A DNA stretch of 64,000 nucleotides, taken from positions 1 through 64,000 of IMG/VR virus record IMGVR_UViG_3300010938_000006. One strand, written 5' to 3'. Positions 7,047 to 39,399 of the stretch are shown in pieces. Both the position numbers and the translations under genes were made by a program. The notes beneath the pieces are model-generated. The model ran no database searches. It was not told the origin of the DNA and worked only from the letters and a program-made list of their open reading frames with translations. How positions within the stretch are numbered: the stretch's first letter is position 1; every line of letters begins with the position of its first letter. The DNA comes from a virus.

Positions 7047-9338
7047 CTATTTTGCTTCTGCCCAATTTCCTGCGGCTTTAGGTTCGGCTACTAGCGGAAC
7101 ACTTAGTTTAACTACATTTTCAGCACGCCTTCGCATAATTTCTTTAACTGTTTCAACAATATCAATAGCGCATTCTACAATGATTTCATCGTGAACTTGT
7201 AAAATAATGTGTGCATCTAAGTTCTTTTCTATAAACTCTTTTTGAATGTTAATCATTGCTCGGTTCACTATATGGGCTGCCAACCCTTGAATTTTAAAAT
7301 TTTTAGAATTATTAAGTAGATTTTTATACTCTCTTCGTTGCTTTAACATTCCTCTTTTTGCGGCCCATTTATAATTTAATAGTTCATCGCCATATAAATT
7401 ATACATCAACTTACATTCTTTAAGATGGCGAATCCTTCCAAATACGGTTCTTACCATTCCGTTATGTTTAGCTTCAAAATCACACGTTTTCATGTATCTG
7501 TGCAAATTAGGATAAGCTAAAAGATACTCACTAACTAGTTTAGCGCCCTCATCTTTATTTATTCCTAGTAGTTCTCCAATTCTATGACCTTCGGCACCAT
7601 ATGCTACTGCCAAAGCCATAGCTTTAAAGATATTTCTAATCTCTGGAAACAGATTTCCCAAAAAGGTTTCTTTATCTTTTTTAAAGGTAGAAACTTCTGG
7701 TCCATATTTTTTAACTTTTTTGGCAATTGAACTATAAAAGTCTTCGTTTTTTTCAAAAATTTCTTGTAAACCTTTATCTCCACTCATATGAGCAAAGCAC
7801 CTAGGCTCCAAACTACTATAATCCATATCTACTAATCGATACCCATCCCTACAAATAAATCCTTTACGAATAGCATTAGTATACTTACGTACTAAGGGTG
7901 AAATGTCAGCATCATCACCTTTAACTCTAGGCAAGTTTTGTAAGTTTGGATTACGACTACTAAATCTTCCTGAGGTTGTTCCAAATTGCAACATACTAGC
8001 GTAAATAATTCCATCTACTTGTCTTTCTAAAATACCTTCAATATAGGTACTGTGAAGTTTATTAAGTTTTTTGAATTCGATAATTTTTACTATCTCTGGA
8101 TATAAATTTTTAATGCTTTCTAAGAATTCATCATCAATCTTAGGTTTTCCAGTTTCAGTTTTTTCTAGTGAGCTTAAATTCCACTCAACACATAGTAATT
8201 GAGCCAAATGATCGTTACTTCTTAAATTGAATACGTTTCTTTGCTCTGGATTTCCTATAAAGAACAATTTTTCTTGTATTTGTCTTGTTACTTTACTATT
8301 AAATGGCGCTTTAGTTCCTGGTTCTGTTATCCAATCATAGAAGGCTTTAAATTGCGGAGTGACCTGTGCTTGCTGCAGTATTGCTTTTTTAGATAAAGTT
8401 ATCTTATTAGTTTTCTTATTAATAGGTAAAGGGATTCCTAAAACATCTGCCGCAGCTTTAGGAAAATTGCCAGTATTTTTTACTGGATAATCTTTATCCA
8501 ATAAACTTTGTTCAAAATCTTGTATATAATTCTTTATTGAAGTAATTACAGAATCTTCTAGTTTATCTATTTCTTTTTGAATAGTAGTACGCAATCTAGA
8601 GAAATACTCTACGTCTACTTTAAAACCCCTTCGCTTCATAGCTATAGTGACCGTTTTATATAATGGCATCACTTCTTCATCGTAAAAGAATTGTCTAAGT
8701 TCTTCTTCGTTTATTTTCTCTTCAAAGATCGTAAATAACATATAAGTAAGCATAACATCCCAACAACAGTACTCTCCTAGTATGTTTGTGTCAGCTTTAT
8801 GCATATCCATATGTTCTTTAGTTGCTCTACCACCATTAGCTTTGATATTTTCAACTAATTTTTCTTTAGCTTTGTCCGCCCACGGTCCTAGATAAGCAAC
8901 AGCTACCTCTTTTAATCCAAAAGGATTTTCTTCATCTAGGCAATGTTTTCCTAAAATAGTATCATGATATAGATAGTCTGCTATTTTAATTCCCCAATGA
9001 TGCTCAAGAACTAAAACGTCATAAATAATATTATGGCCAATAATTTTCTTAGTAGGAATGAAAGATTTTAACCAAGCCAAAATTTCTTGTTGTTGTTGGA
9101 CATCCCAAATTAAATTACCTTCTTTATCTCTCCAAACTAGATAAAAAGCTTTATGATTACTTAAACATAAACCAAGACCGTAAATATTGGCTGATTTTTC
9201 GATTAAAGAATCTGATTCAATATCAAGTACCAAATGTTCGGATTTTATAGCAGAGCAATAAGTCTTAAGTCTCTCAAAAAGAGCCCAATCATTAACTAGA
9301 TAGGTATCAAATTTAGGTTGAATATCAAATTTGTGCAT
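7047..9338 (-). CDS. polA: family A DNA polymerase with 3'-5' exonuclease domain
   Basis: Exo motifs LDIESDS and HNIIYDVLVL. Pol motif A DMDYSSLEPR, motif B FKAMALAVAYG, motif C QVHDEIIVE. Confidence 0.9.
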   Translation of the reverse strand: MHKFDIQPKFDTYLVNDWALFERLKTYCSAIKSEHLVLDIESDSLIEKSANIYGLGLCLSNHKAFYLVWRDKEGNLIWDVQQQQEILAWLKSFIPTKKIIGHNIIYDVLVLEHHWGIKIADYLYHDTILGKHCLDEENPFGLKEVAVAYLGPWADKAKEKLVENIKANGGRATKEHMDMHKADTNILGEYCCWDVMLTYMLFTIFEEKINEEELRQFFYDEEVMPLYKTVTIAMKRRGFKVDVEYFSRLRTTIQKEIDKLEDSVITSIKNYIQDFEQSLLDKDYPVKNTGNFPKAAADVLGIPLPINKKTNKITLSKKAILQQAQVTPQFKAFYDWITEPGTKAPFNSKVTRQIQEKLFFIGNPEQRNVFNLRSNDHLAQLLCVEWNLSSLEKTETGKPKIDDEFLESIKNLYPEIVKIIEFKKLNKLHSTYIEGILERQVDGIIYASMLQFGTTSGRFSSRNPNLQNLPRVKGDDADISPLVRKYTNAIRKGFICRDGYRLVDMDYSSLEPRCFAHMSGDKGLQEIFEKNEDFYSSIAKKVKKYGPEVSTFKKDKETFLGNLFPEIRNIFKAMALAVAYGAEGHRIGELLGINKDEGAKLVSEYLLAYPNLHRYMKTCDFEAKHNGMVRTVFGRIRHLKECKLMYNLYGDELLNYKWAAKRGMLKQRREYKNLLNNSKNFKIQGLAAHIVNRAMINIQKEFIEKNLDAHIILQVHDEIIVECAIDIVETVKEIMRRRAENVVKLSVPLVAEPKAAGNWAEAK

Positions 9339-10365
9339 TTACCCTATCCACTGCTTCTTTAAATTCTTGTGGTTCTAGACCTAGAGATATTCTAACATAT
9401 TCCGGCTTACCAAACAAGTCTCCATTAAGAACTTTTACTTTAGCAGCTTCAAAAGCTTTATCACATTTTGAACCTTTAGGAAGAAAAGCAAACATGCCAT
9501 TAGGAGACATAAACTTTACGTCTGCGATATCTTTATGCAGTGTTTTAAGTACTGTCCTATTCATAGCAAAATCTTTTTGACATAAAGTAACAAAATCATT
9601 GTATATTTCTGGTTTAGAATCAAACAGTTGTTCTAATTTTAATACTATTTGTTGGGAAGCAGAAGACACTCCAGTTGTTGTAATTTCCATATATTCAGAT
9701 GCTAATTCAGCATAAGTAGCATTATTAGTAGCTAAATATCCTATTCTAAGTCCTGATAATCCTAAGGATTTTGAATATGAGTGTATATACATTGAACAAC
9801 TATTCTCTAATCCAAATAAGGTTGGTAAATATATTTTAGAATTATAAGCTCCATCATGAATGAGAGGTAAGTTATCTGCTTGACAATCCATGTTAAAAGC
9901 ATCAAAATCTTGTTGATTCATCATATACCCATCTGGATTATTGGGTAGCGTTAATAAAATAGCTGTTTGATCATCTATCAGCGTATTACTATGAATTACA
10001 TTTAAATCCTCTTTTAAGGCTAGGGTGGGGAAACTTACCCAATAAGGTATTGGTATATATACAGAATCGTAACCTTGGGCCTTTACGGCAGCAAAGGAGG
10101 ATGATATAGCTTGCTTTGCACCATTTGTTATCACGATATATTTATAGCCCGTTTTGTTCTTTAAAAACTCTACTAATTCTGGTATTCCAGTAGAAGGTTT
10201 ATATTCGTGCGTAAGTATGTCATTATTACAGACAATATGGTTGTTTACCCCATGCTTATCTAATACAGATTTAAGGTTAATAGATACTAACTTAGGCTCG
10301 CCTACAGCTAAGTTAATCCAACCTGGAGCCAATTCTTTTCTTAACTGTAAATCAGGTTTACTCAT
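9325..10365 (-). CDS. PLP-dependent aminotransferase (class I/II fold)
   Basis: PLP-lysine motif YSKSLGLSGLRIGY and LPNNPDG, in a 346-aa fold-type I length protein. Its 3' end overlaps the polA ATG. Confidence 0.75.
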   Translation of the reverse strand: MSKPDLQLRKELAPGWINLAVGEPKLVSINLKSVLDKHGVNNHIVCNNDILTHEYKPSTGIPELVEFLKNKTGYKYIVITNGAKQAISSSFAAVKAQGYDSVYIPIPYWVSFPTLALKEDLNVIHSNTLIDDQTAILLTLPNNPDGYMMNQQDFDAFNMDCQADNLPLIHDGAYNSKIYLPTLFGLENSCSMYIHSYSKSLGLSGLRIGYLATNNATYAELASEYMEITTTGVSSASQQIVLKLEQLFDSKPEIYNDFVTLCQKDFAMNRTVLKTLHKDIADVKFMSPNGMFAFLPKGSKCDKAFEAAKVKVLNGDLFGKPEYVRISLGLEPQEFKEAVDRVNAQI

Positions 10366-10441
10366 ATAAGTGCTTGGTTACCTTTTTTGCTCGTTTTGCC
10401 CCTCTTTGTAACAAATATTCGTAAGTCCGTTCACCAGTCAT
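10358..10441 (-). CDS. 27-aa mini-ORF ending HLYE
   Basis: MTGERTYEYLLQRGAKRAKKVTKHLYE. Its TATGAGTAA end embeds the aminotransferase ATG. Confidence 0.3.
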   Translation of the reverse strand: MTGERTYEYLLQRGAKRAKKVTKHLYE

Positions 10442-10450
10442 AGGAACTGT

Positions 10451-10690
10451 TTATATATATTTAGCAAAGTCATTTAACATATTATGGTGTAACAATACGT
10501 CATATTTTATGTGTTTTGGGCTGTTCTTATTTTTAAGAACTTTGGCCTTTATTTTAAGAGCAAATTTTTTATTATTTTCTACTTGTAATATCATTCCATC
10601 TGATAGGATAAGAATATCTTCTATTTCACAATCTTGGATATCCTTATAAGTACCAGTTTTATACCAAATATTCAATACATCAGTTCCCAT
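10451..10690 (-). CDS. hypothetical protein
   Basis: 79-aa ORF. Confidence 0.5.
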   Translation of the reverse strand: MGTDVLNIWYKTGTYKDIQDCEIEDILILSDGMILQVENNKKFALKIKAKVLKNKNSPKHIKYDVLLHHNMLNDFAKYI

Positions 10691-10919
10691 ATAGAATTTT
10701 TATGGCTTTACCAGTCATTTTAGTTATTTGACCTTTATTGAACATTAATTGATTAAACATATAATGTTTACTATTAGAATTCTTTCTCTTTCCAAAAATT
10801 ATTTTGCCGTAGCCAAAAGCTTTATTTCTACCCCAAACTTTAATTATGATTGTGCCATTGATAGGGCTTTTAATTTGAATGATAGAGCCTTTCCTTATAC
10901 TCTTCCATTCTTGTTTCAT
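10680..10919 (-). CDS. LLY-tail family small protein
   Basis: Ends KAIKILYGN. Has an SH3-like GSIIQIKSP strand. Confidence 0.55.
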   Translation of the reverse strand: MKQEWKSIRKGSIIQIKSPINGTIIIKVWGRNKAFGYGKIIFGKRKNSNSKHYMFNQLMFNKGQITKMTGKAIKILYGN

Positions 10920-11479
10920 TTTATATAACCTTCTAAAAGCATAGCTAAAATGAAAGCATGACCCATTCGTCTTTCTTCATTATGAATTACATCATTAAAA
11001 GACATTCCTAAAGATTCATAATCATAACCATCTATGTCAAAAAGAGCTATATTTTTATGTTTGGAATAGAAATCTTTAAGAGTTTTAAAAGCTTCAGTTT
11101 TAACTACAGCTTCGGCATACAACGGAATATAAATTTTTTTTCTAGCCTCAATATATCCTAATTTCTGTTCATCCCAATAACTATATAATGGAATAGCATT
11201 TTTTCCTGATGGGTATCTATCTGCCCATTGTTTAGCCCAACCCTTTTCTGCCCATTTAAAATAATCAGGGGTTGGATTACCTTTTGAATCAGCATGACTA
11301 GGATATACTTTGGCGTATTGCCAAGCATTTTCAACATTTTGAGCACTAGTTCCATTATACAAAGGAACAGGGCCAACTAACATAGGGCTAAGATTTCTTC
11401 CCCAAGTGCTAGAAGTAGTGGTAGTATTTATAACAAAAAAGCCAGTAGCTCTTTTATCCCTTGGTCCTAGTATTTTCAA
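10916..11479 (-). CDS. hypothetical protein, possibly NADAR-related
   Basis: LSPMLVGPVPLY...NVENAWQYAKVY loosely resembles the NADAR SNF...EHYFQAxK pattern. The resemblance is weak. Confidence 0.25.
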   Translation of the reverse strand: MKILGPRDKRATGFFVINTTTTSSTWGRNLSPMLVGPVPLYNGTSAQNVENAWQYAKVYPSHADSKGNPTPDYFKWAEKGWAKQWADRYPSGKNAIPLYSYWDEQKLGYIEARKKIYIPLYAEAVVKTEAFKTLKDFYSKHKNIALFDIDGYDYESLGMSFNDVIHNEERRMGHAFILAMLLEGYIK

Positions 11480-11849
11480 GATTCACCTGCTTAGTAGAAA
11501 GGTCTGTATAAGCTGAGTTATTTTTACCTTCTTTTATTTCACGAAGTGCTCGTTTAATCTTTTGTTCTGAATTATGAAGTCGGGTAACATCTCTTTTATG
11601 ATTTTTCAAAAATTCGATTAGATCGTCAATCTTTTTTCCGCTTAAAAGACTACAATCATAATCTCCATATTGACTAGTGGGCTTACGAAATACATATTTA
11701 GCTGCGGTTATTAGTCTTTTTAACATACTATCATGGTTTACTAATCGAACTTCTGTGTACACTTCACGATTTTCTACATCTGACATAAATCGAATAGTGT
11801 GTGCCATACTATAGCAATCACATTCTATATATTTTGTCTTAATATTCAT
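11454..11849 (-). CDS. hypothetical protein
   Basis: 131-aa ORF. Confidence 0.5.
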   Translation of the reverse strand: MNIKTKYIECDCYSMAHTIRFMSDVENREVYTEVRLVNHDSMLKRLITAAKYVFRKPTSQYGDYDCSLLSGKKIDDLIEFLKNHKRDVTRLHNSEQKIKRALREIKEGKNNSAYTDLSTKQVNLENTRTKG

Positions 11850-12199
11850 TACTTTAGCTCCTTATAAATACGTTTACCTAAGATATCTTCGGCTTTTAAA
11901 TCATCACAGTAAAACAAAGGTTTACTCATAACTAAATCTACGTATTCTTCTAAACCGCAGATTTTAGCAGCTTTGGCCGCCCACGCACTTCCAGTAAGGC
12001 TCCAAATAACAACGCCATAACCTAACCACTTAAACTTCTTAATTAATTCGATATGATTAGTATTTAATACTACAGGTTGTTGCCAACCATTGTTATTTAT
12101 GTATATAACTTTATCATTCATTGATTCTGGCCAGTCATACATAAATAAAGTAGAATCAACATCTACCATTAAAAGTTTATCATTATCCAACTTTACCAC
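11849..12199 (-). CDS. small HAD-like phosphatase/nucleotidase
   Basis: HAD motif I MVDVDSTLF (DxDxT). Confidence 0.35.
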   Translation of the reverse strand: MVKLDNDKLLMVDVDSTLFMYDWPESMNDKVIYINNNGWQQPVVLNTNHIELIKKFKWLGYGVVIWSLTGSAWAAKAAKICGLEEYVDLVMSKPLFYCDDLKAEDILGKRIYKELK

Positions 12200-12220
12200 A
12201 CAACAATTCCTTTGTATCGC

Positions 12221-12415
12221 TCAAGGTTCACCATTTTCGTATAAATAATCTATATCAAAACACCATTCTATTTGTTATTCATCTTTTGGATGAAAAACTA
12301 AACAATCTACTTCATTATAATTATTACCTAATACTCTATAATAAGAGTCTTTAAGTTTAAATACAGTATCTTTAGAAAATTTGAATCCGTAAAAATGTAT
12401 TTCATGCAAACGCAT
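12221..12415 (-). pseudogene. small ORF interrupted by in-frame TAA (12275-12277)
   Basis: ATG 12415. Reads MRLHEIHFYGFKF...HPKDE*QIEWCFDIDYLYENGEP. The frame is otherwise open to TGA 12221. Confidence 0.4.
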
Positions 12416-12428
12416 TACGAATCTTTTC

Positions 12429-12842
12429 CTATAATTCTACTGTCCATTGATATTCTTCAGGACTATGAGCATATCCATTTTTAAACACATAATAATGCGT
12501 TAAGGGTAAAGTGCTTTTTAATAATAAATCTCTGACTTTGCCGTTTTGTTCTAACTTTGCTATATAAGCCATTTTAAGAAACTCTTGAGGAACTTGGTCT
12601 TCTATTCCATCTTGAAGAGATTCTTTACCTAAATTTTTAGCTTGAATTCCGCTGAGTGAACGTAAATTCTCATTACCTGTTAAGATATAATACCAAAAAG
12701 CTTCTACGCTGGCAAATTGTCCAAAATCTTCTAGTTCAAATGGTGTTCGAGGAAAATTAGATAATAAACGACCTAATTCAGTCTTTCCATTAGAATAGAC
12801 ATTAATGTGGTCTATTCCATCATTTTCAGGATTCCATTTCAT
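12429..12842 (-). CDS. NADAR (YbiA/DUF1768)-like protein
   Basis: INVYSNGKTELGRLLSNFPRTPF...GQFASVEAFWYY resembles the NADAR FYS..SNF..P...G..SxEHYFQ pattern. ATG 12842 is in an ATGA overlap with the macro-domain stop. Confidence 0.45.
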   Translation of the reverse strand: MKWNPENDGIDHINVYSNGKTELGRLLSNFPRTPFELEDFGQFASVEAFWYYILTGNENLRSLSGIQAKNLGKESLQDGIEDQVPQEFLKMAYIAKLEQNGKVRDLLLKSTLPLTHYYVFKNGYAHSPEEYQWTVEL

Positions 12843-13297
12843 AATTCCCAAACTGTCCAAGAATATCCAATCTCTTTAATTTTTTTACAGATAATTTCTT
12901 CAGTTTTACTCCAAAGAACTTTAAATAATCCAGCATTAATTTTTGGAGAATGTACTTCTATAGTATTATCTAAATTTCTAAGTAATTCTGATATTGCTTA
13001 CTCTATTGATTGTAGAATTACTCGTTCGGAACTTTTATTTTTACTGTAACTTATACTAGTAAACAAAAACCCTATATTTTGAGAAATGGCTTTGGGATAA
13101 TAATATATTCCTAAACCTAATAAAGCCTCTTTATGTGTATTACACAATCTTTTGTATTCTTTATAATGATTTGGATACTTAATCTTAAATTGAGCGGCTA
13201 TACCTGCTCCCCAAAACCCCGTACAATTGCCCGCATGTATCAATATCGTATTTGGTCCAGCCGCATTAAATAAATTTCCTTTACAATACTTTATCAC
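12839..13297 (-). pseudogene. macro domain (ADP-ribose-binding/hydrolase) gene with in-frame TAA at 12998-13000
   Basis: N-part is KGNLFNA...ILIHAGNCTGFWGAGIAAQF. After the TAA the same frame continues AISELL...VHSPKINAGLFKVLWSKTEEII, which is the conserved C-terminal macro motif. Confidence 0.7.
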
Positions 13298-13908
13298 TTC
13301 TTAGTTCCAAGAATTTCATCTGCTAATCCCATATCAACGGCTTCTTTAGCAGAAAAATAAGTATCAAACATTTGCATACTACGAACTTCTTTTCGTTTAA
13401 GCTTAGGATTTTTCTTGATCATTTGAGAATAAAAAATCTCATCAATCATATTAATAATACGTTTAATTTCTTTAGCTCGGCGTAGCACATTTTGAGTATG
13501 ATCTATTCCACCATCAACACCATCATGAACCATTAATGATGCATTAGGAGCTAAAACTCTTTTGTCTGCAGCTTGCAATATGATAGAACCCATAGACATA
13601 GCATAACCATATACTATAATAATGACTTGATTTTTACAGGATTTGATAGCATCATAGATAGCCATTCCATGATAAACATCTCCACCAGGATTATTCATAA
13701 TAATCGTAATGGGTTTATCTCCTTCTGGAGCTTGCATATCTAATATTGATAATGATTTAATGACTTTTTCTGCCATTAAATGATCGACCCCAGTTTCAGA
13801 ATCATCAAAAGTATAACTTACACTACCCATATAGATTATTCTATTAGTAACATCAATACCATAATCAAAATAATCAGATAATTCGCTAGTTATTCTTTTT
13901 TTAGCCAT
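13294..13908 (-). CDS. ClpP-family serine protease
   Basis: NNPGGDVYHGMAIYD, the GYAMSMGSIIL Ser motif and MVHDG His motif. Confidence 0.8.
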   Translation of the reverse strand: MAKKRITSELSDYFDYGIDVTNRIIYMGSVSYTFDDSETGVDHLMAEKVIKSLSILDMQAPEGDKPITIIMNNPGGDVYHGMAIYDAIKSCKNQVIIIVYGYAMSMGSIILQAADKRVLAPNASLMVHDGVDGGIDHTQNVLRRAKEIKRIINMIDEIFYSQMIKKNPKLKRKEVRSMQMFDTYFSAKEAVDMGLADEILGTKK

Positions 13909-13912
13909 AGTA

Positions 13913-14551
13913 TTACCCTATGCTAATGGTTGAAAACTGTGGGCGCATATCCATATCATTATTGATATTTTTGATTCGTTCGATCATTCGGACATAACAT
14001 AATGCTGTTAGATGAACATCATATAGTGCTTCATGAATATTTGACTTATCTACAGTTATTCCTAAAGTTTCTGCTAGGTTGGCTAGTCCTGATTTAAAAT
14101 TAGTGAATACTCCTGCGTCTGCTAAAAATTGTGCGATTACCGCCGTATCCTTAACTCGATGGCCGAATAAATCTTCAAAACCTTGAATACCGTAAGTATT
14201 AAACAACTCTTTTAGGAAGTTAATATCAAAGGTAACGTTATGTCCTAAAATAATCAAAGGTTTTCCAATAGAAAGGCAAAAATCCACAAATTCTACTAAA
14301 GCGTCATATTCTGATACTCGGCCTTTGGTTTCTTCTTTAATAACGGATAGAGGCGTTTTATTTACCTTTAAAGCACCTATACTAATTTTATTACCACTGG
14401 TATATATCTTCTTGTCAAAAGTTTTGACAGGAATTCCTTTTTCATAATATACAGCACCAATTTGAATAATAGAATGCTGTTTTGGATCTGTTCCAGTAGT
14501 TTCTAAGTCAATACATATAAAATCTAGGGATTTATCTTCAGTGGATTTCAT
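13913..14551 (-). CDS. DEDDh 3'-5' exonuclease (DnaQ-like)
   Basis: ICIDLETTG, GHNVTFDINFL, HEALYDVHLT. Confidence 0.75.
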   Translation of the reverse strand: MKSTEDKSLDFICIDLETTGTDPKQHSIIQIGAVYYEKGIPVKTFDKKIYTSGNKISIGALKVNKTPLSVIKEETKGRVSEYDALVEFVDFCLSIGKPLIILGHNVTFDINFLKELFNTYGIQGFEDLFGHRVKDTAVIAQFLADAGVFTNFKSGLANLAETLGITVDKSNIHEALYDVHLTALCYVRMIERIKNINNDMDMRPQFSTISIG

Positions 14552-14910
14552 TTTAACTCCTGTTTTTGATAGCTATCAAAGCCAGTATAGCATACTTCTA
14601 TTATACCAGCAACTCTTAATGCGTTTGTGCATACTGGGCACGGTTTACTCATACCCATAGTACCATCATTTTTTAAACGATATATATAAGCGGTGGCACC
14701 TTTCGTTTCGTTTATAGAAAGACCTAAAAGACTATGCAATTCTGCATGTAGATAATTACCATAAGTATTACACTTAGGGTGAGTCTTTTTCATATCATTA
14801 AAACCAAAACCTATTATTTTGTTCTTTTTAACGATACAACAACCTAGTTTAAATTTAGAACTAGATTTTTGTGCTAATCTTTTTGCTATGTCGAAATATT
14901 TAGTCTTCAC
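14548..14910 (-). CDS. CDA-fold zinc deaminase (dCMP-deaminase-like)
   Basis: HAE ... PCPVC zinc-binding signature in 120 aa. GTG start. Confidence 0.65.
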   Translation of the reverse strand: MKTKYFDIAKRLAQKSSSKFKLGCCIVKKNKIIGFGFNDMKKTHPKCNTYGNYLHAELHSLLGLSINETKGATAYIYRLKNDGTMGMSKPCPVCTNALRVAGIIEVCYTGFDSYQKQELK

Positions 14911-15130
14911 TTATCTTTCTAAGATTATTCAAGTACTCCTCATTCATTCCATCATAAATACTTCATTCAGAACTTCTATAATCTTTACTATCTTTAAAAG
15001 ATGTAATATTATTAGCTAGTTCTCTTAGAAAATAAGCACAGTCTTGAGGCGTACTAAAATAAAATTCTCCAGATTCCATTCTATCTTCGTTACCAAAAGA
15101 TAAATATAAGGCATTATGCTTTATCTTCAT
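14900..15130 (-). pseudogene. small ORF interrupted by in-frame TGA (14963-14965)
   Basis: ATG 15130 overlaps the upstream stop. Reads MKIKHNALYLSF...DYRSSE*SIYDGMNEEYLNNLRKISED, and the end overlaps the deaminase start. Confidence 0.45.
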
Positions 15131-15668
15131 AAATATCCTTTATATAATCGAATTTGAAAATTTCATGGGTTTTTAATTCAGTATAATTACCGCCCCATAA
15201 CTTCAAAAGTCTTTCAAATTCTTTGTCTACTTCCGCTCTAATTTCTATATTAGTATCTCGAAAGTTATCATTAGCAATGTACGCTCCTGGACTATCTGGG
15301 CGAACAAAGTATATTTTATGAAAAGTATTTAAATGATTAATAGCTAAAGAAAAATATTCTGATGGGAGTTTTAAATTGTAAACTAATCCATAAATAAGAG
15401 TATCCACAGCACTACGATCACAAATAACCACGTCATATAATTGCTCCGCTGAAAATTCCTGGGTTAAATGCTGTACCATACACAGCTTTTGGAATTCAGG
15501 AGTATTAATTTTTCCTCCAACCAATCGTGATACTTCTCGTACATTTTCTTCAATAATTTTAATAGACTTCGCAGGATTATTCTGTTTAAGAACTGCTCCT
15601 AGATGAGAAGCGGCACTGGACTTGCCGGTGCCGTGGCTGCCTATGAAAGCTATCTTAATTTTGCTCAT
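15114..15668 (-). CDS. P-loop NTPase/kinase (NadR-like AAA)
   Basis: Walker A GSHGTGKSS. Start moved to ATG 15668 because the track start overlaps the upstream gene. Confidence 0.55.
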   Translation of the reverse strand: MSKIKIAFIGSHGTGKSSAASHLGAVLKQNNPAKSIKIIEENVREVSRLVGGKINTPEFQKLCMVQHLTQEFSAEQLYDVVICDRSAVDTLIYGLVYNLKLPSEYFSLAINHLNTFHKIYFVRPDSPGAYIANDNFRDTNIEIRAEVDKEFERLLKLWGGNYTELKTHEIFKFDYIKDIYEDKA

Positions 15669-15969
15669 TATTAAGTCCAATCTCTTCGTAAAGACGGAAA
15701 GCAGGACGACGATTAATTCCATTTTGAAACTTATTAGTAAATCCAACCAAATTGATTTTAACTTTTCCGTCAACAACTTTACTAAGAAGTTCTTTTAGCT
15801 TATCTTCGCTAAGAGTAACTTCTACAGAAAGAAATTCATTGTTGTTTTTACGAGAAAGCTTTTTCCAAATAGCGCCAATTTCAGGTCGTTGATTACGACG
15901 TTCAATAACTTCATTTAGACGGTCTTGATTGATTGCAACTCCGAACGTAGGTTTTTGATTTTTACTCAT
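15655..15969 (-). CDS. DUF736-like protein
   Basis: EIGAIWKKLSRKNNNEFLSVEV and RRPAFRLYEE resemble the DUF736 pattern. Confidence 0.35.
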   Translation of the reverse strand: MSKNQKPTFGVAINQDRLNEVIERRNQRPEIGAIWKKLSRKNNNEFLSVEVTLSEDKLKELLSKVVDGKVKINLVGFTNKFQNGINRRPAFRLYEEIGLNNEQN

Positions 15970-21808: not shown

Positions 21809-22912
21809 CTATCGTTTTATAAGTCCAGTCAAATCATTTTTGTGACAAGCATTATAATACGGACAACGACCACCATACCAATTTTCACATTTATCCGTAT
21901 TCTTGTACACAATTCCTTCCTTCATCGCATGAATAATATTGCTATAATCTTTAAATAGGTCTTGAATTTGTTCTTGTGTTTTACGTTGAGTTAACAGTTG
22001 TACTTCTGGCTTAAGTTTTTTGGTAACTTTCCAGGTACCTCCACACCGGCCATTATTTATCTCAGCATTACAAGTGTGATGTCGGCTATCTTTAATATTG
22101 CCACAATTATTACAAGTGGCTATTTCTTCTTTTTGAATGTTTTTACACAACACCACATACCCTACTAGGTCTGTTTGATGTACAGCACCCTCAAGAGCTA
22201 AATATAGGGTTAGTTGTTCTGTTAAATCAATGTGCTCTTGAGTGTATGGTTGTGAAGAGGTTTTTAAGTCTAAAATTAAAGGCTTATCATATCCTTCTAA
22301 TTCTACAATCATATCTACCATTGCTACTATGCTATCTCCAGTTTGTGAATCTAGGATGCTGCTTTGCTTTTGAGTAGATAATACTTTAGTAATTTTTGGA
22401 TAGAATTGGTCTACAAAGGCTTCAATTAAAATTCTACCCTTGTTATCTAAAGAGAGCCAACTCGCTCTATTAAAGAATATTAACTGATTTGCGGTAGTTT
22501 TGATATAGGGATTCTTCTTAATCTTAGTGACTTCTTTTTGAATCTCTACGCCAGTTTTACCTAAACCAGTTAAACCTAGCTGGATTGCCCAATCCATCAA
22601 CACTTGATGGTCTTGTGGTTGTAAAACATATTCATCAAAATCAGCATTAGAAAATGCTATGTTGGGATTATCAAAAATTTGATGGGTTTTATTGTTTACG
22701 TTGGATTGCTTCCAATTATCATGAAACAACTTCATGTAGTTAGAGGTTAATCCGTTCTCCAACAAATGCATTACAGCCATGTCTACAGCCGAACCAAAAT
22801 ATGTTGAAGCTCCTTCTACGGGAGATTTTAGTCTTTGATTATAACTCCAGTCCCAAAATTTAGGGCACTGAATATAAGTACTATTTTGACTATATGATGT
22901 TTTGTGCGACAC
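21809..22912 (-). CDS. Cas4-like PD-(D/E)XK exonuclease with Fe-S cysteines
   Basis: N-terminal YIQCP Cys plus C-terminal CENWYGGRCPYYNAC. Inserted CNNCG...CNAEINNGRCGG ribbon. GTG start. Confidence 0.7.
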   Translation of the reverse strand: MSHKTSYSQNSTYIQCPKFWDWSYNQRLKSPVEGASTYFGSAVDMAVMHLLENGLTSNYMKLFHDNWKQSNVNNKTHQIFDNPNIAFSNADFDEYVLQPQDHQVLMDWAIQLGLTGLGKTGVEIQKEVTKIKKNPYIKTTANQLIFFNRASWLSLDNKGRILIEAFVDQFYPKITKVLSTQKQSSILDSQTGDSIVAMVDMIVELEGYDKPLILDLKTSSQPYTQEHIDLTEQLTLYLALEGAVHQTDLVGYVVLCKNIQKEEIATCNNCGNIKDSRHHTCNAEINNGRCGGTWKVTKKLKPEVQLLTQRKTQEQIQDLFKDYSNIIHAMKEGIVYKNTDKCENWYGGRCPYYNACHKNDLTGLIKR

Positions 22913-22996
22913 TAAATCCTTTTCCGTCTCATTATCAAATCCGTTAGCAATGACTAGTATAATTTTTATTAGTATATCAGGTATAGTATCAAAAGT

Positions 22997-23434
22997 CTAT
23001 TTTATTTCTGTAGTGTCTGTAAGTAGGTCTAATGTAAGCATTACTACTTTGTTCATATCTTTAGCGCCGTATTTTGTATAGTCTTTTCCGCCATCAATAA
23101 AAGTGTCGTTGGGACATCCACAATAAATAAAATGATGTCTATTTATACTGTATAAGACAGTATCACATTCATGACAATACAAAGCATCTTGAAATCTCCA
23201 TTTATCCATTTCTTCTTGAGTCATTCCTCTAACACAATTGAGTGGTGGGCCATTTAACAATAAATAATCTTTGTGGCCTTTTTTTCTATTGGGTTTGGCT
23301 ACTTTATAAACAGCTACAGGATGATATTCATTATTAACGCAGAATTCATTAAGAAACGTAAGTCCACCTTCAAACATTTTGTTTACTTTTTTGTGATCAA
23401 ATCCGTAATATTCAGCTTTTTTAATTTTACTCAT
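22997..23434 (-). CDS. hypothetical zinc-finger protein
   Basis: CHECD...HHFIYCGCPN. Start set to ATG 23434, in an ATGA overlap with the upstream LYG stop. Confidence 0.5.
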   Translation of the reverse strand: MSKIKKAEYYGFDHKKVNKMFEGGLTFLNEFCVNNEYHPVAVYKVAKPNRKKGHKDYLLLNGPPLNCVRGMTQEEMDKWRFQDALYCHECDTVLYSINRHHFIYCGCPNDTFIDGGKDYTKYGAKDMNKVVMLTLDLLTDTTEIK

Positions 23435-23676
23435 CCGTATAAATCCTGAGATATAGGAGTACAACCAGTGTGCATTATTTTAGAGAATTGTTCTCCAGTA
23501 TAATTGAGTACTTTATACTTTTGCGTGTCAAACATAAATACTACGTAGGGTTCTCTGTTATAATTCATAAGTCCCCAAGCGGCGACAGCCATTGGATTTA
23601 CATTAATATACAGGTCATTAGTTTGCTGCCCGTATTCTGTATCTATCTTTCTAAGTTGTAGCTCTATAAATTTCAC
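23431..23676 (-). CDS. LLY-tail family small protein
   Basis: Ends ISQDLYG. Confidence 0.55.
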   Translation of the reverse strand: MKFIELQLRKIDTEYGQQTNDLYINVNPMAVAAWGLMNYNREPYVVFMFDTQKYKVLNYTGEQFSKIMHTGCTPISQDLYG

Positions 23677-26458: not shown

Positions 26459-26753
26459 AAAGTAACTTCAAAAACTTTATTTTTTTATTGGTTTTTTGTT
26501 TACTTATACTAGTGAAGATTCTAGTATCATTATCAATTTCATAACAAAATACTGTAGTGTAATGATTACTAATATCTAACTTACTTGTATAGATATTAGT
26601 ATATACTAAATTTACAGAATATCTAGTAATTTTATGTGGCCTAGTTTCCCAAGTAGAATCAGAAATGTCATCTTCTAAAATAGAAGTGACTATGTAATAG
26701 TTTAAATCTCGTATATTCTTTAAAATATCACCTATCTTTAGATTCTTGTTCAT
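26451..26753 (-). CDS. LLY-tail family small protein
   Basis: LKIGDILKNI near the N-terminus. Ends KFLKLLYG. Confidence 0.55.
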   Translation of the reverse strand: MNKNLKIGDILKNIRDLNYYIVTSILEDDISDSTWETRPHKITRYSVNLVYTNIYTSKLDISNHYTTVFCYEIDNDTRIFTSISKQKTNKKIKFLKLLYG

Positions 26754-27483
26754 ATTGTTTAATCAGTCGATTAGTGAATATCGCCGTGCTTTGACTAGTT
26801 CCTGACATCTTAATACCAAATCCTTCAACATTTAGTCCATTTTCACATTGTCTAACTGGGCCACCGTAATTAGAACTAGCAACATATTTACCATCTTTGC
26901 AATTACCTACTGCATAAAGATTACCAGTTGTGTCTGGTACACATGCAGGATAGTATTGGCATTTAGCAGTCAAATTATTACCATCATTGCCAGCAGCTAC
27001 AGCAATTTTAATGCCTTTCTTAAGAGCTACAGTAACTATTTCTGTTTCTTTTTTAGAAGGGTCTAAGCCACCGCCACTAAAATTAATAAATTTGACATCT
27101 TGTTTAACTGCTTCTTCAAAAGAAGCGATTTCGTTATTGAGATTACTAAATGCTTGACTACCGTTACTGTAATATCTATATATAACTAAACAGAATTTTG
27201 TTGTATCTAGATTTCTAGATACTATACCTGCGATATTGGTGCCATGCCCATGTTTATCTTCTATCCCACCGCCCACAAAATCTTTATGCCCAGTTTTACA
27301 TAGAAATTTGGTTGTAGTATCATTTAGAGTTATGCCTGTATCAATAATAGCCACTTTAACTCTAGTTTCAAGAATAGCAGGCTCACGATTGATAATCGTT
27401 TCTTTATAGGCATCTTCTTTTCTACAAGAAGTAAAGCAAAGTAATAAACTTATTTTGAATATTAGTAACTTTTTCATAGGCAT
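26728..27483 (-). CDS. subtilisin-like (S8) serine protease, lipoprotein
   Basis: Triad contexts AIIDTGI, HGHGTNIAG, SGTSQSTA. Signal peptide with lipobox LLLCFTSC. Confidence 0.8.
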   Translation of the reverse strand: MPMKKLLIFKISLLLCFTSCRKEDAYKETIINREPAILETRVKVAIIDTGITLNDTTTKFLCKTGHKDFVGGGIEDKHGHGTNIAGIVSRNLDTTKFCLVIYRYYSNGSQAFSNLNNEIASFEEAVKQDVKFINFSGGGLDPSKKETEIVTVALKKGIKIAVAAGNDGNNLTAKCQYYPACVPDTTGNLYAVGNCKDGKYVASSNYGGPVRQCENGLNVEGFGIKMSGTSQSTAIFTNRLIKQYEQESKDR

Positions 27484-28618: not shown

Positions 28619-29160
28619 GAACGATCTCCATATTGATATTCATAAATCTTTTTTATTTGCGCTAAAAATTCTTTTCTGCTTTGCTTATATTTAGCTAAAT
28701 TACAAAATTTACAACAGGTTACTACATTTTTTACAGAATATCCAAATTCATTCTTTACTTTATCAATACCATTATACACGCAATCTCCATTACGTTCAGA
28801 AACTTTTGTTAAAGGTGAGTTTTCACAATAATGACAATTATTTATTGTAAGTTCCTTAAAAACCTTTTTGGAAAGTCTAAAACTTATGTTTCTGTATTTT
28901 GCTTCTTTTTTATACCTTCCATATAAGGTATTAAAAGCAGATTGTCCAAAAGCTAAAGAATTTCTTTTTATGGACGATTCTATAGAATAGCAGCCACAAC
29001 TCTTACTTAATCCATTCACTAAGCAAGTGCCTCTAACTATTTTAGTTTTACCACAAATATACTTACAATGTCAAAAACTAATATTAGCTGTAATATTCGC
29101 TTTTGATAAAACTGTCCATCTACCAAATGTTTTGTTTAGTAAATTAAGAGGTTTGCACAT
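28615..29160 (-). pseudogene. HNH homing endonuclease with in-frame TGA (29071-29073) at a conserved Trp position
   Basis: ATG 29160. Reads MCKPLNLLNKTFGRWTVLSKANITANISF*HCKYICGKTKIV...SCGC...CHYCE...CCKFCNLAK. The track ORF (GTG 29019) covers only the C-terminal part. Confidence 0.75.
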
Positions 29161-29716
29161 TTTTCATCTTTTCTATAAAATAATTAAAAAAGTGGGCTGT
29201 AGCTAAGGCATCGGCCAAAGCATTATGTTTTTGTAATGTAGTAGGCCATTTTAAACCACATTTAGCCATAGATTTACTCAAACCGCTTTGGGTTTTAAGT
29301 CCATTAGCCAGTTGATAAGTCTGATATAAGGTTTTTACATCAAAGAATCTACGGCCAAAGATACTTCTATCTCCTGGATTTCCATCAGCTTTTACCTTAT
29401 CCCACAAATAAGAACTATCTCCACCACCCCAAGTAACTGGATAACTTTCAGCATTATGTTTAATCTTTAGTTCACATAATTTACCATAAGCTGATTGCAA
29501 ATCAATACCAAGGTCAGCTTGTGCTTGCGTAATCCCTGTTAATTTAGTAATAAATGGATCTATTGGCTCATTCGGGTTAACGATTACAGATAACTCCTCA
29601 ACAATGGTGAAGGGTTCTATATGAAAGGCTACGGCTCCAATTTGGATTACTTTATCTACTTCACCTTTAGCATTTTTATTCATTTCTAAATCTAGACTGA
29701 TAAATACTTTACCCAT
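29144..29716 (-). CDS. DEDDh 3'-5' exonuclease
   Basis: ISLDLEMN ... HNALADALATAHFF. Confidence 0.7.
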   Translation of the reverse strand: MGKVFISLDLEMNKNAKGEVDKVIQIGAVAFHIEPFTIVEELSVIVNPNEPIDPFITKLTGITQAQADLGIDLQSAYGKLCELKIKHNAESYPVTWGGGDSSYLWDKVKADGNPGDRSIFGRRFFDVKTLYQTYQLANGLKTQSGLSKSMAKCGLKWPTTLQKHNALADALATAHFFNYFIEKMKNVQTS

Positions 29717-33230: not shown

Positions 33231-34619
33231 CTACCTTTTTTTATTAATCTTAATTCTAGTAACCCATCCCCACTTAGCGGGAGGATTTTGATTGCCGTAA
33301 ATTGCCCATAGAACGGGATATTTGGGTTTCTTAGGATGATCGGCCATATCCATATCACCGAAGTAAATTAGACCGTCTACGTCCAATTCTGCGGCCTTAT
33401 CCAAGGCAGGTTGATATGCTGTTCCACCACGACCATTAACTTTAATAGGCTTTTTTGGGTCAAATTTGTACACTTTATGCACAACACAGTCAGCTTCGAT
33501 AACAGTTATTTCTACTCCCATATTGTGAATTTTTGCACACTCTGCCCAAATTTGTTCTAAAGATTCGTCTGGCATACTACCAGAAGTATCCCATGCCGTA
33601 GCCAAATGCATTTTAGGATAAACTTTTATACCAGGAAATAATACCCCAAATCGACGATTACGAATTTTTCTCGAAGATTCAAGAATAATTTCAGAGGTTT
33701 TAGCAACAAAACGTTGCAAGTCCGCTCGCCAATCCTTAGGCTTATAGTACAAAGCGTTAATCATTTGAGCTAAATCCCCAGGTAACGTTCCAATACCCAT
33801 ATTGGATTGCTCCATAGCCTTGCCTACAGTTTGCTTAATCTTTTCTGCTACGTATTCTGCATCTGGATTGCCTTCATACCAAATGCTATGGTCATCTACT
33901 GTACTGTTTCCTTGACCATCTTTGCCTTGACTTTGGCTCTTTCCTTTTTGAGTTTGGCCTTCATCACCATCACCGCCACCTTTACGTTTCTTTTGTAAAA
34001 TATCATAATAATATTCCATATTTTGGCGACGTTCTAATCCTGGATGTTGTTTAGCAAGATTATCCACTAGCAAAGGTTGTGCCTCAAGAGGTTTTCCAGC
34101 GTCAGGATTGTCAATAACGTTTCCTTGATTGTCCATCATTTGGTCAGGTTGAACAATCATATCACCTTGTTCGTTAAACAAGTGAAACTTCTTAGGCAAA
34201 TTAGGCAGATACTCGTTAATGGCGTAGTCTGCCGCTTGGTTTAACGTACTGGCCTTCATCATGTCTTGAACAACTTCTTTAAGTTGTCGCTTTTCACCGT
34301 AAAACATATTAGGTTCTAAGTCTTTATATCGACCGATGTGATTGTTAAGAACGTGATAAACTTCATGTTTAAGTAATTCGATTCGTTCTGGTTGTTTCAA
34401 ATCATTCCAGAAGAATGGATTAACGTAAAGATTAACCGTATCAGTCACATTTACCCCCAAAGTTGGGAGTCTGGTAACAAAATTTCTAGTCATATTTAAT
34501 AACATTGCCGCAAAAAACGGCTCATTTTGAATAAGCTTCATAATTGCAGCTTGCAGATTCTCTGCAGCTTCCGATTCTGCTCGCTTAAGTCTATCGTTAA
34601 TTTGATTATTTTGTTCCAT
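33231..34619 (-). CDS. VWA-domain protein with N-terminal HExxH metallopeptidase-like domain (DUF2201/CobT-like)
   Basis: HEVYHVLNNH in the N-half. MIDAS-type AWDTSGSMPDE in the C-half. Confidence 0.7.
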   Translation of the reverse strand: MEQNNQINDRLKRAESEAAENLQAAIMKLIQNEPFFAAMLLNMTRNFVTRLPTLGVNVTDTVNLYVNPFFWNDLKQPERIELLKHEVYHVLNNHIGRYKDLEPNMFYGEKRQLKEVVQDMMKASTLNQAADYAINEYLPNLPKKFHLFNEQGDMIVQPDQMMDNQGNVIDNPDAGKPLEAQPLLVDNLAKQHPGLERRQNMEYYYDILQKKRKGGGDGDEGQTQKGKSQSQGKDGQGNSTVDDHSIWYEGNPDAEYVAEKIKQTVGKAMEQSNMGIGTLPGDLAQMINALYYKPKDWRADLQRFVAKTSEIILESSRKIRNRRFGVLFPGIKVYPKMHLATAWDTSGSMPDESLEQIWAECAKIHNMGVEITVIEADCVVHKVYKFDPKKPIKVNGRGGTAYQPALDKAAELDVDGLIYFGDMDMADHPKKPKYPVLWAIYGNQNPPAKWGWVTRIKINKKR

Positions 34620-34642
34620 ACACTTATTTTATTCAAAACAAA

Positions 34643-34687
34643 GGCGGATAGCTAGTACTATTTTAAATTTTGTACTAACTACCCGCC
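34643..34687 (-). terminator. 16-bp stem-loop plus U-tract between the MoxR and VWA genes
   Basis: On the minus-sense RNA, GGCGGGUAGUUAGUAC/GUACUAGCUAUCCGCC pairs with two G-U wobbles and is followed by UUUGUUUUG. Confidence 0.6.
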
Positions 34688-34719
34688 GTTGACGACGTTA
34701 TAATGGGGGCGTCTAAGTC

Positions 34720-35820
34720 TTACTTTGCATTCATTTTAGCTTTGGCTTTAGTAAGCAAAGCTTCAAATTCCTTATCATTCTCAAAGAATGTTCGGAGGTT
34801 ATCTTGTAGATATAGCTCTCGTGCAGAACTATAACATAAGTCTGCAGGGATTGCCTTAAGAAACTTCATAAGGTTATCACCTTCGACTGCAGTAAACTTA
34901 GTCTTATCCTTAGCCTTTACATACTTAAGGATATTATCTGACGTAGCTTTTAGAAGGTCCATACGACCACCAGTAGCATGGTCAGAATATTGCTCAATAC
35001 GCTTCTTATGCTTATTGAAGTGCTTGAGAATATCCTCTGCACTCAACGGTTTATCGGTATTCTTAATAGATTCGATAAACGCCGTAGTGGCAGCCATTCC
35101 AATAAGGCCGTAGCTTAGCTCTTGGAGCAAGCTAAGAGGCATTTTTTGCTTTTTCAAGCGGTCCAGAGACTTATAGCTACGACGAGAGGGCTTTACTTCT
35201 TCATAGTTAAAGTCTTCGGTTTTATTCTCCAGTAATTCAGGTTGAGTGCGAATAAACTCAATGATATCTGGATCGGTGTCTGATTTTTCAGCATAATCTA
35301 ACCATTCCGAAACAGTGGGATCAAGTTTAATGTGACAAAAGCGATCCATGAAAGCTTTATCAGCGATATCAGTAACGATATAATCTTCAGTATTAGGATT
35401 ACTCATTGCCATGATGTAGCAATTGTTGGGCAAATATGTCGTATGCATACGTCCTTCGAGAACCAACGGGAATACCGCTTGAAGTACGTCACGACGAGCA
35501 CGATTCATTTCGTCAAGAGCTAGAATAGCTCCAGACTTAGGATTATTCGTGCAGTAATCAATAATCTCTTTGAGCCAGTTCGGAGTAAAGTGTTTAGTAG
35601 CAATCTTACGGCCTTTATCATCCGTATCAAAATCTGGAAGACCTAGCAAGTCTCCTATATCTTGAGTACCGAGATTGAGATACATAAACTTATATCCCAA
35701 TTCATCAGCGAATTGTTTCGCCGTTTCAGATTTGCCAATTCCGTGTCGGCCCCATACCAAGCTAGCTACCTTAGCCTTCATGAGGTAAGGTAGAGCCTTT
35801 TTAAATGTCTTGATATCCAT
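34720..35820 (-). CDS. MoxR/CobS-like AAA+ ATPase
   Basis: Walker A GRHGIGKSE, Walker B ILALDEMNRA, 366 aa. Paired with the VWA gene. Confidence 0.8.
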   Translation of the reverse strand: MDIKTFKKALPYLMKAKVASLVWGRHGIGKSETAKQFADELGYKFMYLNLGTQDIGDLLGLPDFDTDDKGRKIATKHFTPNWLKEIIDYCTNNPKSGAILALDEMNRARRDVLQAVFPLVLEGRMHTTYLPNNCYIMAMSNPNTEDYIVTDIADKAFMDRFCHIKLDPTVSEWLDYAEKSDTDPDIIEFIRTQPELLENKTEDFNYEEVKPSRRSYKSLDRLKKQKMPLSLLQELSYGLIGMAATTAFIESIKNTDKPLSAEDILKHFNKHKKRIEQYSDHATGGRMDLLKATSDNILKYVKAKDKTKFTAVEGDNLMKFLKAIPADLCYSSARELYLQDNLRTFFENDKEFEALLTKAKAKMNAK

Positions 35821-38709: not shown

Positions 38710-39036
38710 TTATTTGTGGTTTGTGTACAGCTTGTCAATAACCTGATTAATACGTGACCTACCAACAGGATTAGAGCTAACGCAGTATATCCCATGGATA
38801 GGCAGGTATTCAGTATTTTCTTCAAGCCAACAAATGACATCATATCCAGTCTTTTCTTTGTCGCCCTCAAAAGACGCCAAATCGTGGTCCAGATACAAAA
38901 TGTCCCAAGGACCTTCTTCTTTTAAAAGTCTAATGCCTTCAAAATAATCTCTAGCTATCGTATGAGATTCATTCTCTTGTTGTTTGTGTACTTGTTCAAA
39001 GTTGCGAGCATCATCAATTAGTAGTATACGCTTTAT
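38710..39036 (-). pseudogene. receiver-like domain protein lacking a canonical start (ATA at 39034-39036)
   Basis: The frame reads (ATA)KRILLIDDARNF...WDILYLDHDLA...VSSNPVGRSRINQVI. There is no ATG/GTG/TTG before the TTG at 38898, which lies inside the domain. Confidence 0.55.
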
Positions 39037-39051
39037 ACTGCTAGTATAGCA

Positions 39052-39399
39052 TTATTTATATTCGCAAACAATAGGACCAGGCAAATATATGCAAGATTCT
39101 AAGTGTCCTTTATGTTTACAAACCTTAATCTTAGTCTCCTTGCACACTTTCTTAGGTGTCGGCTTAGACGTAGGAGTAGGCGGACAAGGTGTTGGAGTTG
39201 GAGGCACAGGCGTTGGGGTAGGAGCTACGCAACACAAAGGAGGCGTAGGTTTGGGCGTAGCAACAGGAGGAGTAGGACACGGTGTAGAAGACGGTGTAGG
39301 ATTAGAGTATACACTATTGTCTGAGCTACAATCTTCACAACGACCACAACCAAACAATCCCATCAAAATAATTACAAAAAATACATAAAACAGTTTCAT
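39052..39399 (-). CDS. Pro/Thr-rich lipoprotein
   Basis: Signal peptide with lipobox GLFGC, followed by PTPxP repeats and Cys pairs. Confidence 0.65.
   Translation of the reverse strand: MKLFYVFFVIILMGLFGCGRCEDCSSDNSVYSNPTPSSTPCPTPPVATPKPTPPLCCVAPTPTPVPPTPTPCPPTPTSKPTPKKVCKETKIKVCKHKGHLESCIYLPGPIVCEYK

Follow-up and report, generated by a model that had tools for sequence, protein, structure and literature searches.

A candidate anti-DNA-ADP-ribosylation island with two NADAR-like genes and an apparently decayed phosphatase branch in an uncultured tailed phage

Overview of the locus

The 64,000-nucleotide stretch analysed here (positions 1 to 64,000 of IMG/VR record IMGVR_UViG_3300010938_000006; "the window" below) carries, on its minus strand between 10916 and 13297, a gene for a protein of the family DUF6939, a gene for a small NADAR-fold protein and an interrupted macrodomain gene. 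With a probability of roughly 0.55, we read this locus as an anti-DNA-ADP-ribosylation island with two NADAR-fold genes and a decayed phosphatase branch. It would be an ADP-ribose-processing island among the replication genes of an AT-rich tailed phage that has not been cultured, and the NADAR-fold protein, which resembles gp30.3/AdfN of phage T4, and the DUF6939 protein would, like AdfN, split ADP-ribose from a DNA base at the N-glycosidic bond. Most probably they would act on guanine-N2-ADP-ribose made by DarT1-type or pierisin-type transferases, and removal of the ADP-ribose would allow the phage polymerase to replicate the DNA. A recent change of CAA to TAA would have inactivated the macrodomain gene, which is of the Poa1p type, and the NADAR genes have been retained.

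Phage NADARs (AdfN) and macrodomains (AdfM) have recently been proven to act as counter-defences against DarTG (PMC11825919, PMC13309987), and the initial annotation of this DNA had proposed a cassette in which a macrodomain and a NADAR protein encoded side by side counter both DarT1 and DarT2. The two folds are indeed present, and their genes are adjacent. The idea of a working dual cassette, however, did not hold, as the macro half is not of DarG type and is interrupted, so that the pair would not form a functional dual DarT1/DarT2 system. For annotation, the lesson is that a "Macro" match beside a "NADAR" match does not imply DarG-type activity. The locus mostly adds members to known kinds of gene; its modest addition is two NADAR-like families; only four NADAR families are listed in recent reviews (PMC12945103).

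A NADAR-fold protein from a sister clade of AdfN

The gene at 12429..12842 (minus strand) is intact and encodes 137 residues; its ATG overlaps the TGA of the macrodomain gene as ATGA. Single-sequence searches with the protein reached neither PF08010 nor PF08719 nor any other Pfam family at E ≤ 1, and returned chance-level matches only from the PDB. The sole match obtained in this way was phrog_652 (E = 3.7e-36), a family without a functional annotation. When a profile of 47 family sequences was searched against the PDB, the top two matches were E. coli YbiA (E = 7.8e-4) and the P. nicotianae NADAR (PDB code 8BAU; E = 2.9e-3). Profile-profile comparison with hhalign relates the family to T4 gp30.3 at 95.4% (E = 1.9e-8) and to a canonical NADAR alignment at 93.5% over 132 columns, and 14 of the 47 relatives match Pfam Phage_30_3 (PF08010; best E = 1.2e-5). 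On these comparisons we assign the protein to a sister clade of the AdfN family (PHROG 652), outside PF08010 in the strict sense.

The AlphaFold2 model of the protein has a predicted local distance difference test score (pLDDT) of 94.8. Foldseek returned YbiA (template modelling (TM) score 0.62), the P. nicotianae NADAR 8BAU (0.54) and the G. lovleyi NADAR 8BAT (0.49) as the top three PDB entries, each with a probability of at least 0.98, and beyond these three NADAR structures no entry exceeded a probability of 0.04. With the NADAR fold defined as a helical core flanked by small β-hairpins, the predicted structure has this fold. The ATGA overlap given in the initial annotation is correct, and its assignment of a NADAR/YbiA-like protein is supported by both family profiles and structure prediction.

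Glu47 is invariant in the 47 relatives and aligns with the corresponding Glu of YbiA and with AdfN E36, the catalytic Glu with which the first core helix of NADARs begins (E43 in P. nicotianae NADAR (PnNADAR), E88 in EcC7, E36 in AdfN; PMC11543638, PMC11825919). The AK..G(R/K) motif of NADARs is also kept, with K69 and G72 nearly invariant and K73 present. Judged from this motif, K69 and K73 would match PnNADAR K75 and R79, of which K75 is equivalent to K115 of E. coli C7, a residue required for antitoxin function (PMC11543638). The last-strand catalytic residue differs by NADAR type, being Glu in YbiA, Asp in DarG1 and His in the phage NADARs. H116 of the window protein, in the LP(L/F)xHYY motif of the C-terminal hairpin, is at least 90% conserved; the profile alignments end just before it or sit one residue off.

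T4 gp30.3 is AdfN, a guanine-ADP-ribose glycohydrolase that is both necessary and sufficient against DarTG1 (PMC11825919, PMC11125620). As well as being homologous to it by hhalign, the window protein is likewise small, stand-alone and made of the NADAR core only, shares the catalytic Glu (E47 for E36) and has in H116, in the C-terminal strand region, a candidate counterpart of the His of phage NADARs, and both genes lie among early or replication genes. The clade differs from AdfN in having an N-terminal DG(I/V)(D/T)HIN motif of its own, and in occurring chiefly in Ackermannviridae-like and jumbo phages, not in T-even phages. It is found in 573 GenBank phage records, among them CBA120-related phages (~150-160 kb), Kuttervirus-like phages, many jumbo phages and 157-kb Vibrio phages, and nearly all of the records listed annotate its members as hypothetical. 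The matches listed, a minority of these 573 records, gave no sign that the tested Bas32 and Bas60 NADARs belong to the clade, as no T5-like or rV5-like phage could be recognised among them. The nearest IMG/VR relative is 49% identical to the window protein. Several homologues in IMG/VR are fused to UDG (uracil-DNA glycosylase; comparison locus L005 6001..6990, IMGVR_UViG_3300019487_000031), to DNA polymerase A with a 3'-5' exonuclease (L006 5980..8877) or to a PD-(D/E)XK nuclease (L081 5986..7611). These fusions tie the NADAR clade to DNA transactions.

The DUF6939 protein as a probable divergent NADAR-like enzyme

The second gene, at 10916..11479 (minus strand), is intact, starts with TTG and encodes 187 residues. 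It matches Pfam DUF6939 with 33.1 bits (E = 5.6e-8), above the family cut-off of 27 bits. The family is large, with 1,864 representatives at 50% clustering, and relatives are commonly 53-60% identical. No PDB match was obtained with either the single sequence or the family profile. Since single-sequence searches fail for this protein as they do for the product of 12429..12842, family profiles and structure prediction are needed for both.

The AlphaFold2 model of the DUF6939 protein (pLDDT 96.7) has as its only credible PDB matches in Foldseek the G. lovleyi NADAR (probability 0.98, TM-score 0.46) and YbiA (0.77); the P. nicotianae NADAR ranks sixth (0.11). Among the viral models of BFVD, same-family homologues from giant viruses come first, followed by a tail dominated by NADAR-annotated and PHROG 652 proteins. 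Close structural homologues are present in pithoviruses, marseilleviruses and megaviruses.

The N-terminal 46 residues match motifs of the gp30.3-like protein, namely IN..(S/T), GR.LS(P/N)F and (N/S)VE..W.Y, and the two proteins have their secondary-structure elements in the same order. E50, Q54 and K57 are invariant in DUF6939 and reproduce the canonical NADAR pattern E-x3-Q-x2-K, including the Lys seven residues after the Glu. We infer the equivalence of E50 and K57 to the NADAR Glu and Lys from the position of their helix at the same place in the secondary structure, not from a superposition. In the strand that carries D-x-E in NADARs of the DarG1 type (PMC11543638), DUF6939 has an invariant D150 and a nearly invariant D148. 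In homologues P0285, P0291, P0319, P0283, P0330 and P0347, DUF6939 repeatedly stands in tandem with canonical NADAR domains, or is joined to DUF4326, to a CoiA nuclease or to a 2H (2'-5' RNA ligase-like) phosphoesterase, and on other contigs DUF6939 genes stand near SIR2 and Nudix genes. With moderate confidence, we regard the DUF6939 protein as a divergent NADAR-like enzyme. An early suggestion that 10916..11479 might encode a second, distant NADAR-like protein agrees with this, the best matches of the model being NADAR structures. DUF6939, a Pfam domain of unknown function found in giant viruses too, thus becomes a candidate for a further branch of NADAR-like enzymes.

The macrodomain is of the Poa1p type

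The macrodomain gene occupies 12839..13297 on the minus strand, a frame of 152 codons that starts with GTG and ends with a TGA at 12839-12841. Its GTG overlaps the TGA stop of the neighbouring ClpP gene as GTGA. Pfam Macro matches residues 20-136, reading across an internal TAA, and covers all 118 positions of the model (28.4 bits, cut-off 22; E = 1.7e-6), so that the gene was rightly recognised as encoding a macro domain.

Its assignment to the DarG type, in contrast, is not supported. A family profile of 16 homologues searched against the PDB matches yeast Poa1p (6LFQ) at E = 7e-34 over the entire domain, compared with 5.5e-13 for DarG (5M31) and 2.7e-12 for TARG1. HxxN, FTS and P(K/Q)IN(A/S)G(L/I)F motifs are common to Poa1p and the phage family, and H21 and F125, the His and Phe mutated in PDB variants 6LFS and 6LFU, are kept in the window protein. 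The window gene differs from Poa1p in being phage-encoded, interrupted by a TAA and substituted at four invariant positions. No gene for Tpt1/KptA, the producer of the Poa1p substrate, was seen among the ORFs (open reading frames) scanned in the window.

DarG2 macrodomains and AdfM (PhiKZ gp104), a phage macrodomain validated as an anti-DarT2 factor with named active-site residues (PMC13309987), belong to the same broad macrodomain clade. The active-site Asn is shared, N24 of the window family corresponding to AdfM N23 and DarG N22. The catalytic Lys, K80 in T. aquaticus DarG and K78 in AdfM (PMC13309987), is not: it aligns with Ser81, a residue that all 17 aligned family sequences share. Identity to AdfM is ~19%. 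Matches to the DarG models of PADLOC (E = 4.4e-14) and NCBIfam (NF048014; E = 7.8e-11) are partial only, the latter reaching 41.8 bits where the cut-off is 250. On this evidence the macrodomain is best placed in the Poa1p-type ADP-ribose-1''-phosphate phosphatase family, and not with the DarG-type thymine-ADP-ribose hydrolases.

The internal stop codon and probable decay of the macrodomain gene

Codon 100 of the macrodomain gene is an in-frame TAA (12998..13000), one transition away from CAA (Gln). The stop noted in the initial annotation was confirmed, and it is also present in the Joint Genome Institute (JGI) contig Ga0063162_1004386 (51 kb; sample 3300003890), which has the same sequence and is identical over 520 aligned bases of the macro region. 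The truncated 99-residue product is on record for two contigs; a 114,940-bp contig in the collection encodes the same truncated product together with a 99%-identical DUF6939 protein.

The nearest relative, P0121, lies on an activated-sludge contig (L004) in which the order ClpP-macro-NADAR and both 4-base overlaps are retained. It is 87% identical and intact, starts with ATG and has CAA (Gln) at the position of the stop. Forty alignment columns are conserved in 80% or more of the remaining family members; at these, the window protein deviates five times (C23G, G85S, S89, T98I and P128L) and P0121 once, in a change shared with the window. C23G, G85S, T98I and P128L hit positions that are conserved in 14 or 15 of the 15 more distant relatives, and P0121 carries none of them. 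The 52 codons past the TAA contain no ATG, GTG or TTG, and the C-terminal part cannot therefore be made as a separate piece. The ratio of non-synonymous to synonymous substitution rates (dN/dS) against P0121 is 0.17 overall and 0.12 downstream of the stop. Selection thus appears to have acted until recently, and the lesion would be young, or possibly not fixed.

Expression of the full macrodomain by read-through, on which the initial annotation had made its function depend, finds no support. Among 94 coding-strand ORFs in the window TAA is the commonest stop (53, against 25 TGA and 16 TAG), the only tRNA is a tRNA-Met with no suppressor tRNA in the window, and nearly all ORFs begin only a few codons after the in-frame stop before them. 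These features, to which the further damaging substitutions are to be added, leave no sign of recoding or programmed read-through. Genome-wide stop recoding is ruled out by the use of all three stops, and same-frame ORF pairs at 24704, 4410 and 2742, considered as recoded genes, read as separate genes, each downstream ORF having a start of its own. The macrodomain gene is probably a recent pseudogene.

Alternatively, the TAA might stem from faulty assembly or sequencing, or be carried by a minority only, with an intact and working Poa1p-type gene in the population. The nonsense change is a single transition, the codons that follow it are still under purifying selection, and the 51-kb JGI contig derives from one sample, 3300003890. 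Set against this are the identical truncated product on two contigs, the four further substitutions that the 87%-identical sister lacks, and a GTG start where the sister has ATG, and we think it improbable that the stop is of this kind.

Even less credible, and in our view highly improbable, is a working dual cassette in which thymine ADP-ribosylation by DarT2 is undone by a read-through macrodomain, and guanine ADP-ribosylation by DarT1 is undone by the NADAR protein. The partial matches to DarG models, the conserved Asn, the precedent of AdfM as a phage anti-DarT2 macrodomain (PMC13309987) and post-stop codons that look selected (dN/dS 0.12) are all compatible with such a system. Poa1p, however, is much the closer relative (7e-34 versus 5.5e-13), an invariant Ser stands in for the catalytic Lys, the DarG score falls far below its cut-off (41.8 of 250 bits), TAA is the main stop with no suppressor tRNA in the window, and four more invariant positions are substituted.

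A cREC companion gene with an apparently lost start codon

An ORF at 38713..39051 (minus strand) matches cREC_REC, the cyclic-phosphate-processing receiver domain, over its full length (PF20274, E = 4.1e-19). The TAA of a lipoprotein-like ORF (39052..39399) stands immediately before it, and it has no ATG, GTG or TTG before codon 51. Its codon 6 is ATA (39034-39036), and the start codons of its homologues from phages Mater and XacN1 correspond to codons 6-7, so that the gene is best explained by loss of its start codon through a change of ATG to ATA. Read-through from the lipoprotein-like ORF is the less favoured explanation.

cREC proteins are predicted to process a cyclic phosphate of ADP-ribose (PMC9503650). 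This step would come immediately before that of Poa1p. The phosphate branch thus looks disabled at both of its steps, whereas both NADAR-fold genes are intact. A decay of this branch seems to be indicated by the two point mutations.

Related loci

Co-occurrence of Macro and NADAR genes in DNA viruses has already been described (Iyer, Burroughs, Aravind et al. 2022, PMC9503650), within Macro-NADAR-SLOG-DUF4326-Nudix neighbourhoods of large DNA viruses. The window resembles these in that a large phage carries a Macro gene next to a NADAR gene, and its relatives share DUF4326-NADAR-SLOG fusions and NAD+ salvage neighbours. It differs from them in that the macro member seems to have decayed and one NADAR-like member is still labelled DUF6939 in Pfam.

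In 80 IMG/VR loci with a PHROG 652 homologue, a Poa1p-type macro gene lies within 6 kb in three and a DUF6939 gene in two. A conserved macro-NADAR-DUF6939 cassette as a general rule was rejected on these counts. Only the close sister contig L004 repeats the tightly packed order ClpP-macro-NADAR. In L005, the closest IMG/VR relative, all three families are clustered more loosely; between 7313 and 10956 a gene for NMNAT-Nudix is followed by the Poa1p-type macro gene, by a canonical NADAR gene (PF08719, E = 6.8e-49) that overlaps the macro gene, and by NAMPT. A tblastn search of the window itself found no NAD+ salvage genes, UDG or canonical NADAR. A nucleotidyltransferase of the RlaP family is encoded upstream of the NAD+ island of L005.

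Proposed role and alternatives

Action of the island on ADP-ribosylated DNA has to be weighed against several observations that speak against it. Seven residues after the catalytic Glu, NADARs carry a phosphate-binding Lys (PnNADAR K50) that is essential in the E. coli C7 NADAR (K95) and in AdfN (K43) (PMC11543638, PMC11825919). In the window protein Leu (L54) takes its place, and no Lys stands at this position in the clade consensus. A very widespread NADAR-fold clade thus lacks a residue deemed essential, and its enzymatic activity is putative. For DUF6939, hhalign comparisons with NADAR alignments are not significant (2.7%, 0.2% and 0.2%), and the TM-scores of its model to solved NADARs are only 0.32-0.46. 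The TAA is known from assemblies that possibly share a single sample. The anti-DarT1 role is putative. Finally, homologues of the NADAR-like protein other than those described above are fused to DUF4326 and SLOG domains (L007, L008, L020), fusions that have been read as processing soluble ADP-ribose derivatives (PMC9503650).

These last fusions, with that of DUF6939 to a 2H phosphoesterase, would also suit a different role, in which the NADAR-like and DUF6939 proteins act not on DNA but on soluble molecules derived from NAD+ or ADP-ribose (immune signals, toxic metabolites or RNA-repair by-products), and the island is part of a metabolite-clearing network. Such a role has been favoured for phage Macro/NADAR proteins (PMC9503650); it fits the position of the Poa1p-type macro and canonical NADAR genes of L005 between the NMNAT-Nudix and NAMPT genes, and the missing phosphate-binding Lys hints at an altered substrate. 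However, all phage NADARs tested to date remove guanine-linked ADP-ribose from DNA and counter DarT1 (PMC11825919, PMC11125620), further homologues carry a fused UDG, DNA polymerase A or nuclease domain, and the genes are located among replication genes. We consider soluble substrates rather unlikely, if a serious alternative.

It is also conceivable, if doubtful, that the NADAR superfamily includes two unrecognised and catalytically distinct branches, DUF6939 and the Lys-less gp30.3-like clade, with specificities other than guanine-ADP-ribose. Thymine-, cytosine- or adenine-linked ADP-ribose in DNA or RNA, or an ADP-ribose-derived immune signal, would then come into question. Were this so, phages with both proteins could cover several ADP-ribosylating defences by the NADAR fold alone, and a macrodomain would be dispensable.

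For the preferred reading, cleavage of ADP-ribose from guanine in DNA, homology to the validated AdfN (hhalign 95.4%) makes the NADAR gene a plausible anti-DarT1-type factor, and to this extent the role first proposed for it stands, with a putative enzymatic activity in this clade without the Lys. Both NADAR-like proteins are small and easy to assay.

Genomic context

The genes around 10916..13297 are densely packed and all on the minus strand, within a replication region. DNA polymerase A is encoded at 7047..9338 as a member of the same run, followed by an aminotransferase and two 79-residue ORFs before the DUF6939 gene; ORFs of 131, 116 and 46 residues separate the latter from the NADAR-like gene. 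On the other side, a ClpP-like serine protease gene (13294..13908) adjoins the macro frame, and beyond it are encoded an RNase T-like exonuclease, a dCMP deaminase, an AAA protein, an ATP-dependent DNA ligase and DnaB, all on the minus strand. RecA is also encoded among the neighbouring genes. The ClpP gene is placed inside the replication module and not with head genes. After ~44 kb the window carries plus-strand structural genes, including that for the large terminase subunit. G+C content per 2-kb window is 30-43%, mostly 30-36%, and a megablast search of positions 10000-16000 against GenBank phages gave no match. Contig look-ups for other proteins encoded in the window likewise returned no record.

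The 116-residue ORF between the NADAR-like and DUF6939 genes (11849..12199, minus strand) has DVDST (DxDxT-like) and WSLTG motifs reminiscent of HAD phosphatases. This identity was not adopted, since the sole PDB match, to UBLCP1, is non-significant (E = 0.4) and no Pfam or PHROG family was matched. At 21809..23479 (minus strand) a 155-residue ORF (DUF7695) and a 367-residue PD-(D/E)XK nuclease ORF share a frame, with a single TAG at 22997 between them and 28 open codons before the first start codon of the nuclease ORF. They are probably two genes, with no domain extending across the TAG. A DUF2201 metallopeptidase/VWA-like protein is encoded next to an AAA_5 (MoxR/dynein-like) ATPase at 33231..35820 (minus strand), in a replication region; near this pair stand genes for a subtilase-like protease (26728..27483) and for another RNase T-like exonuclease (29144..29716), the second in the window.

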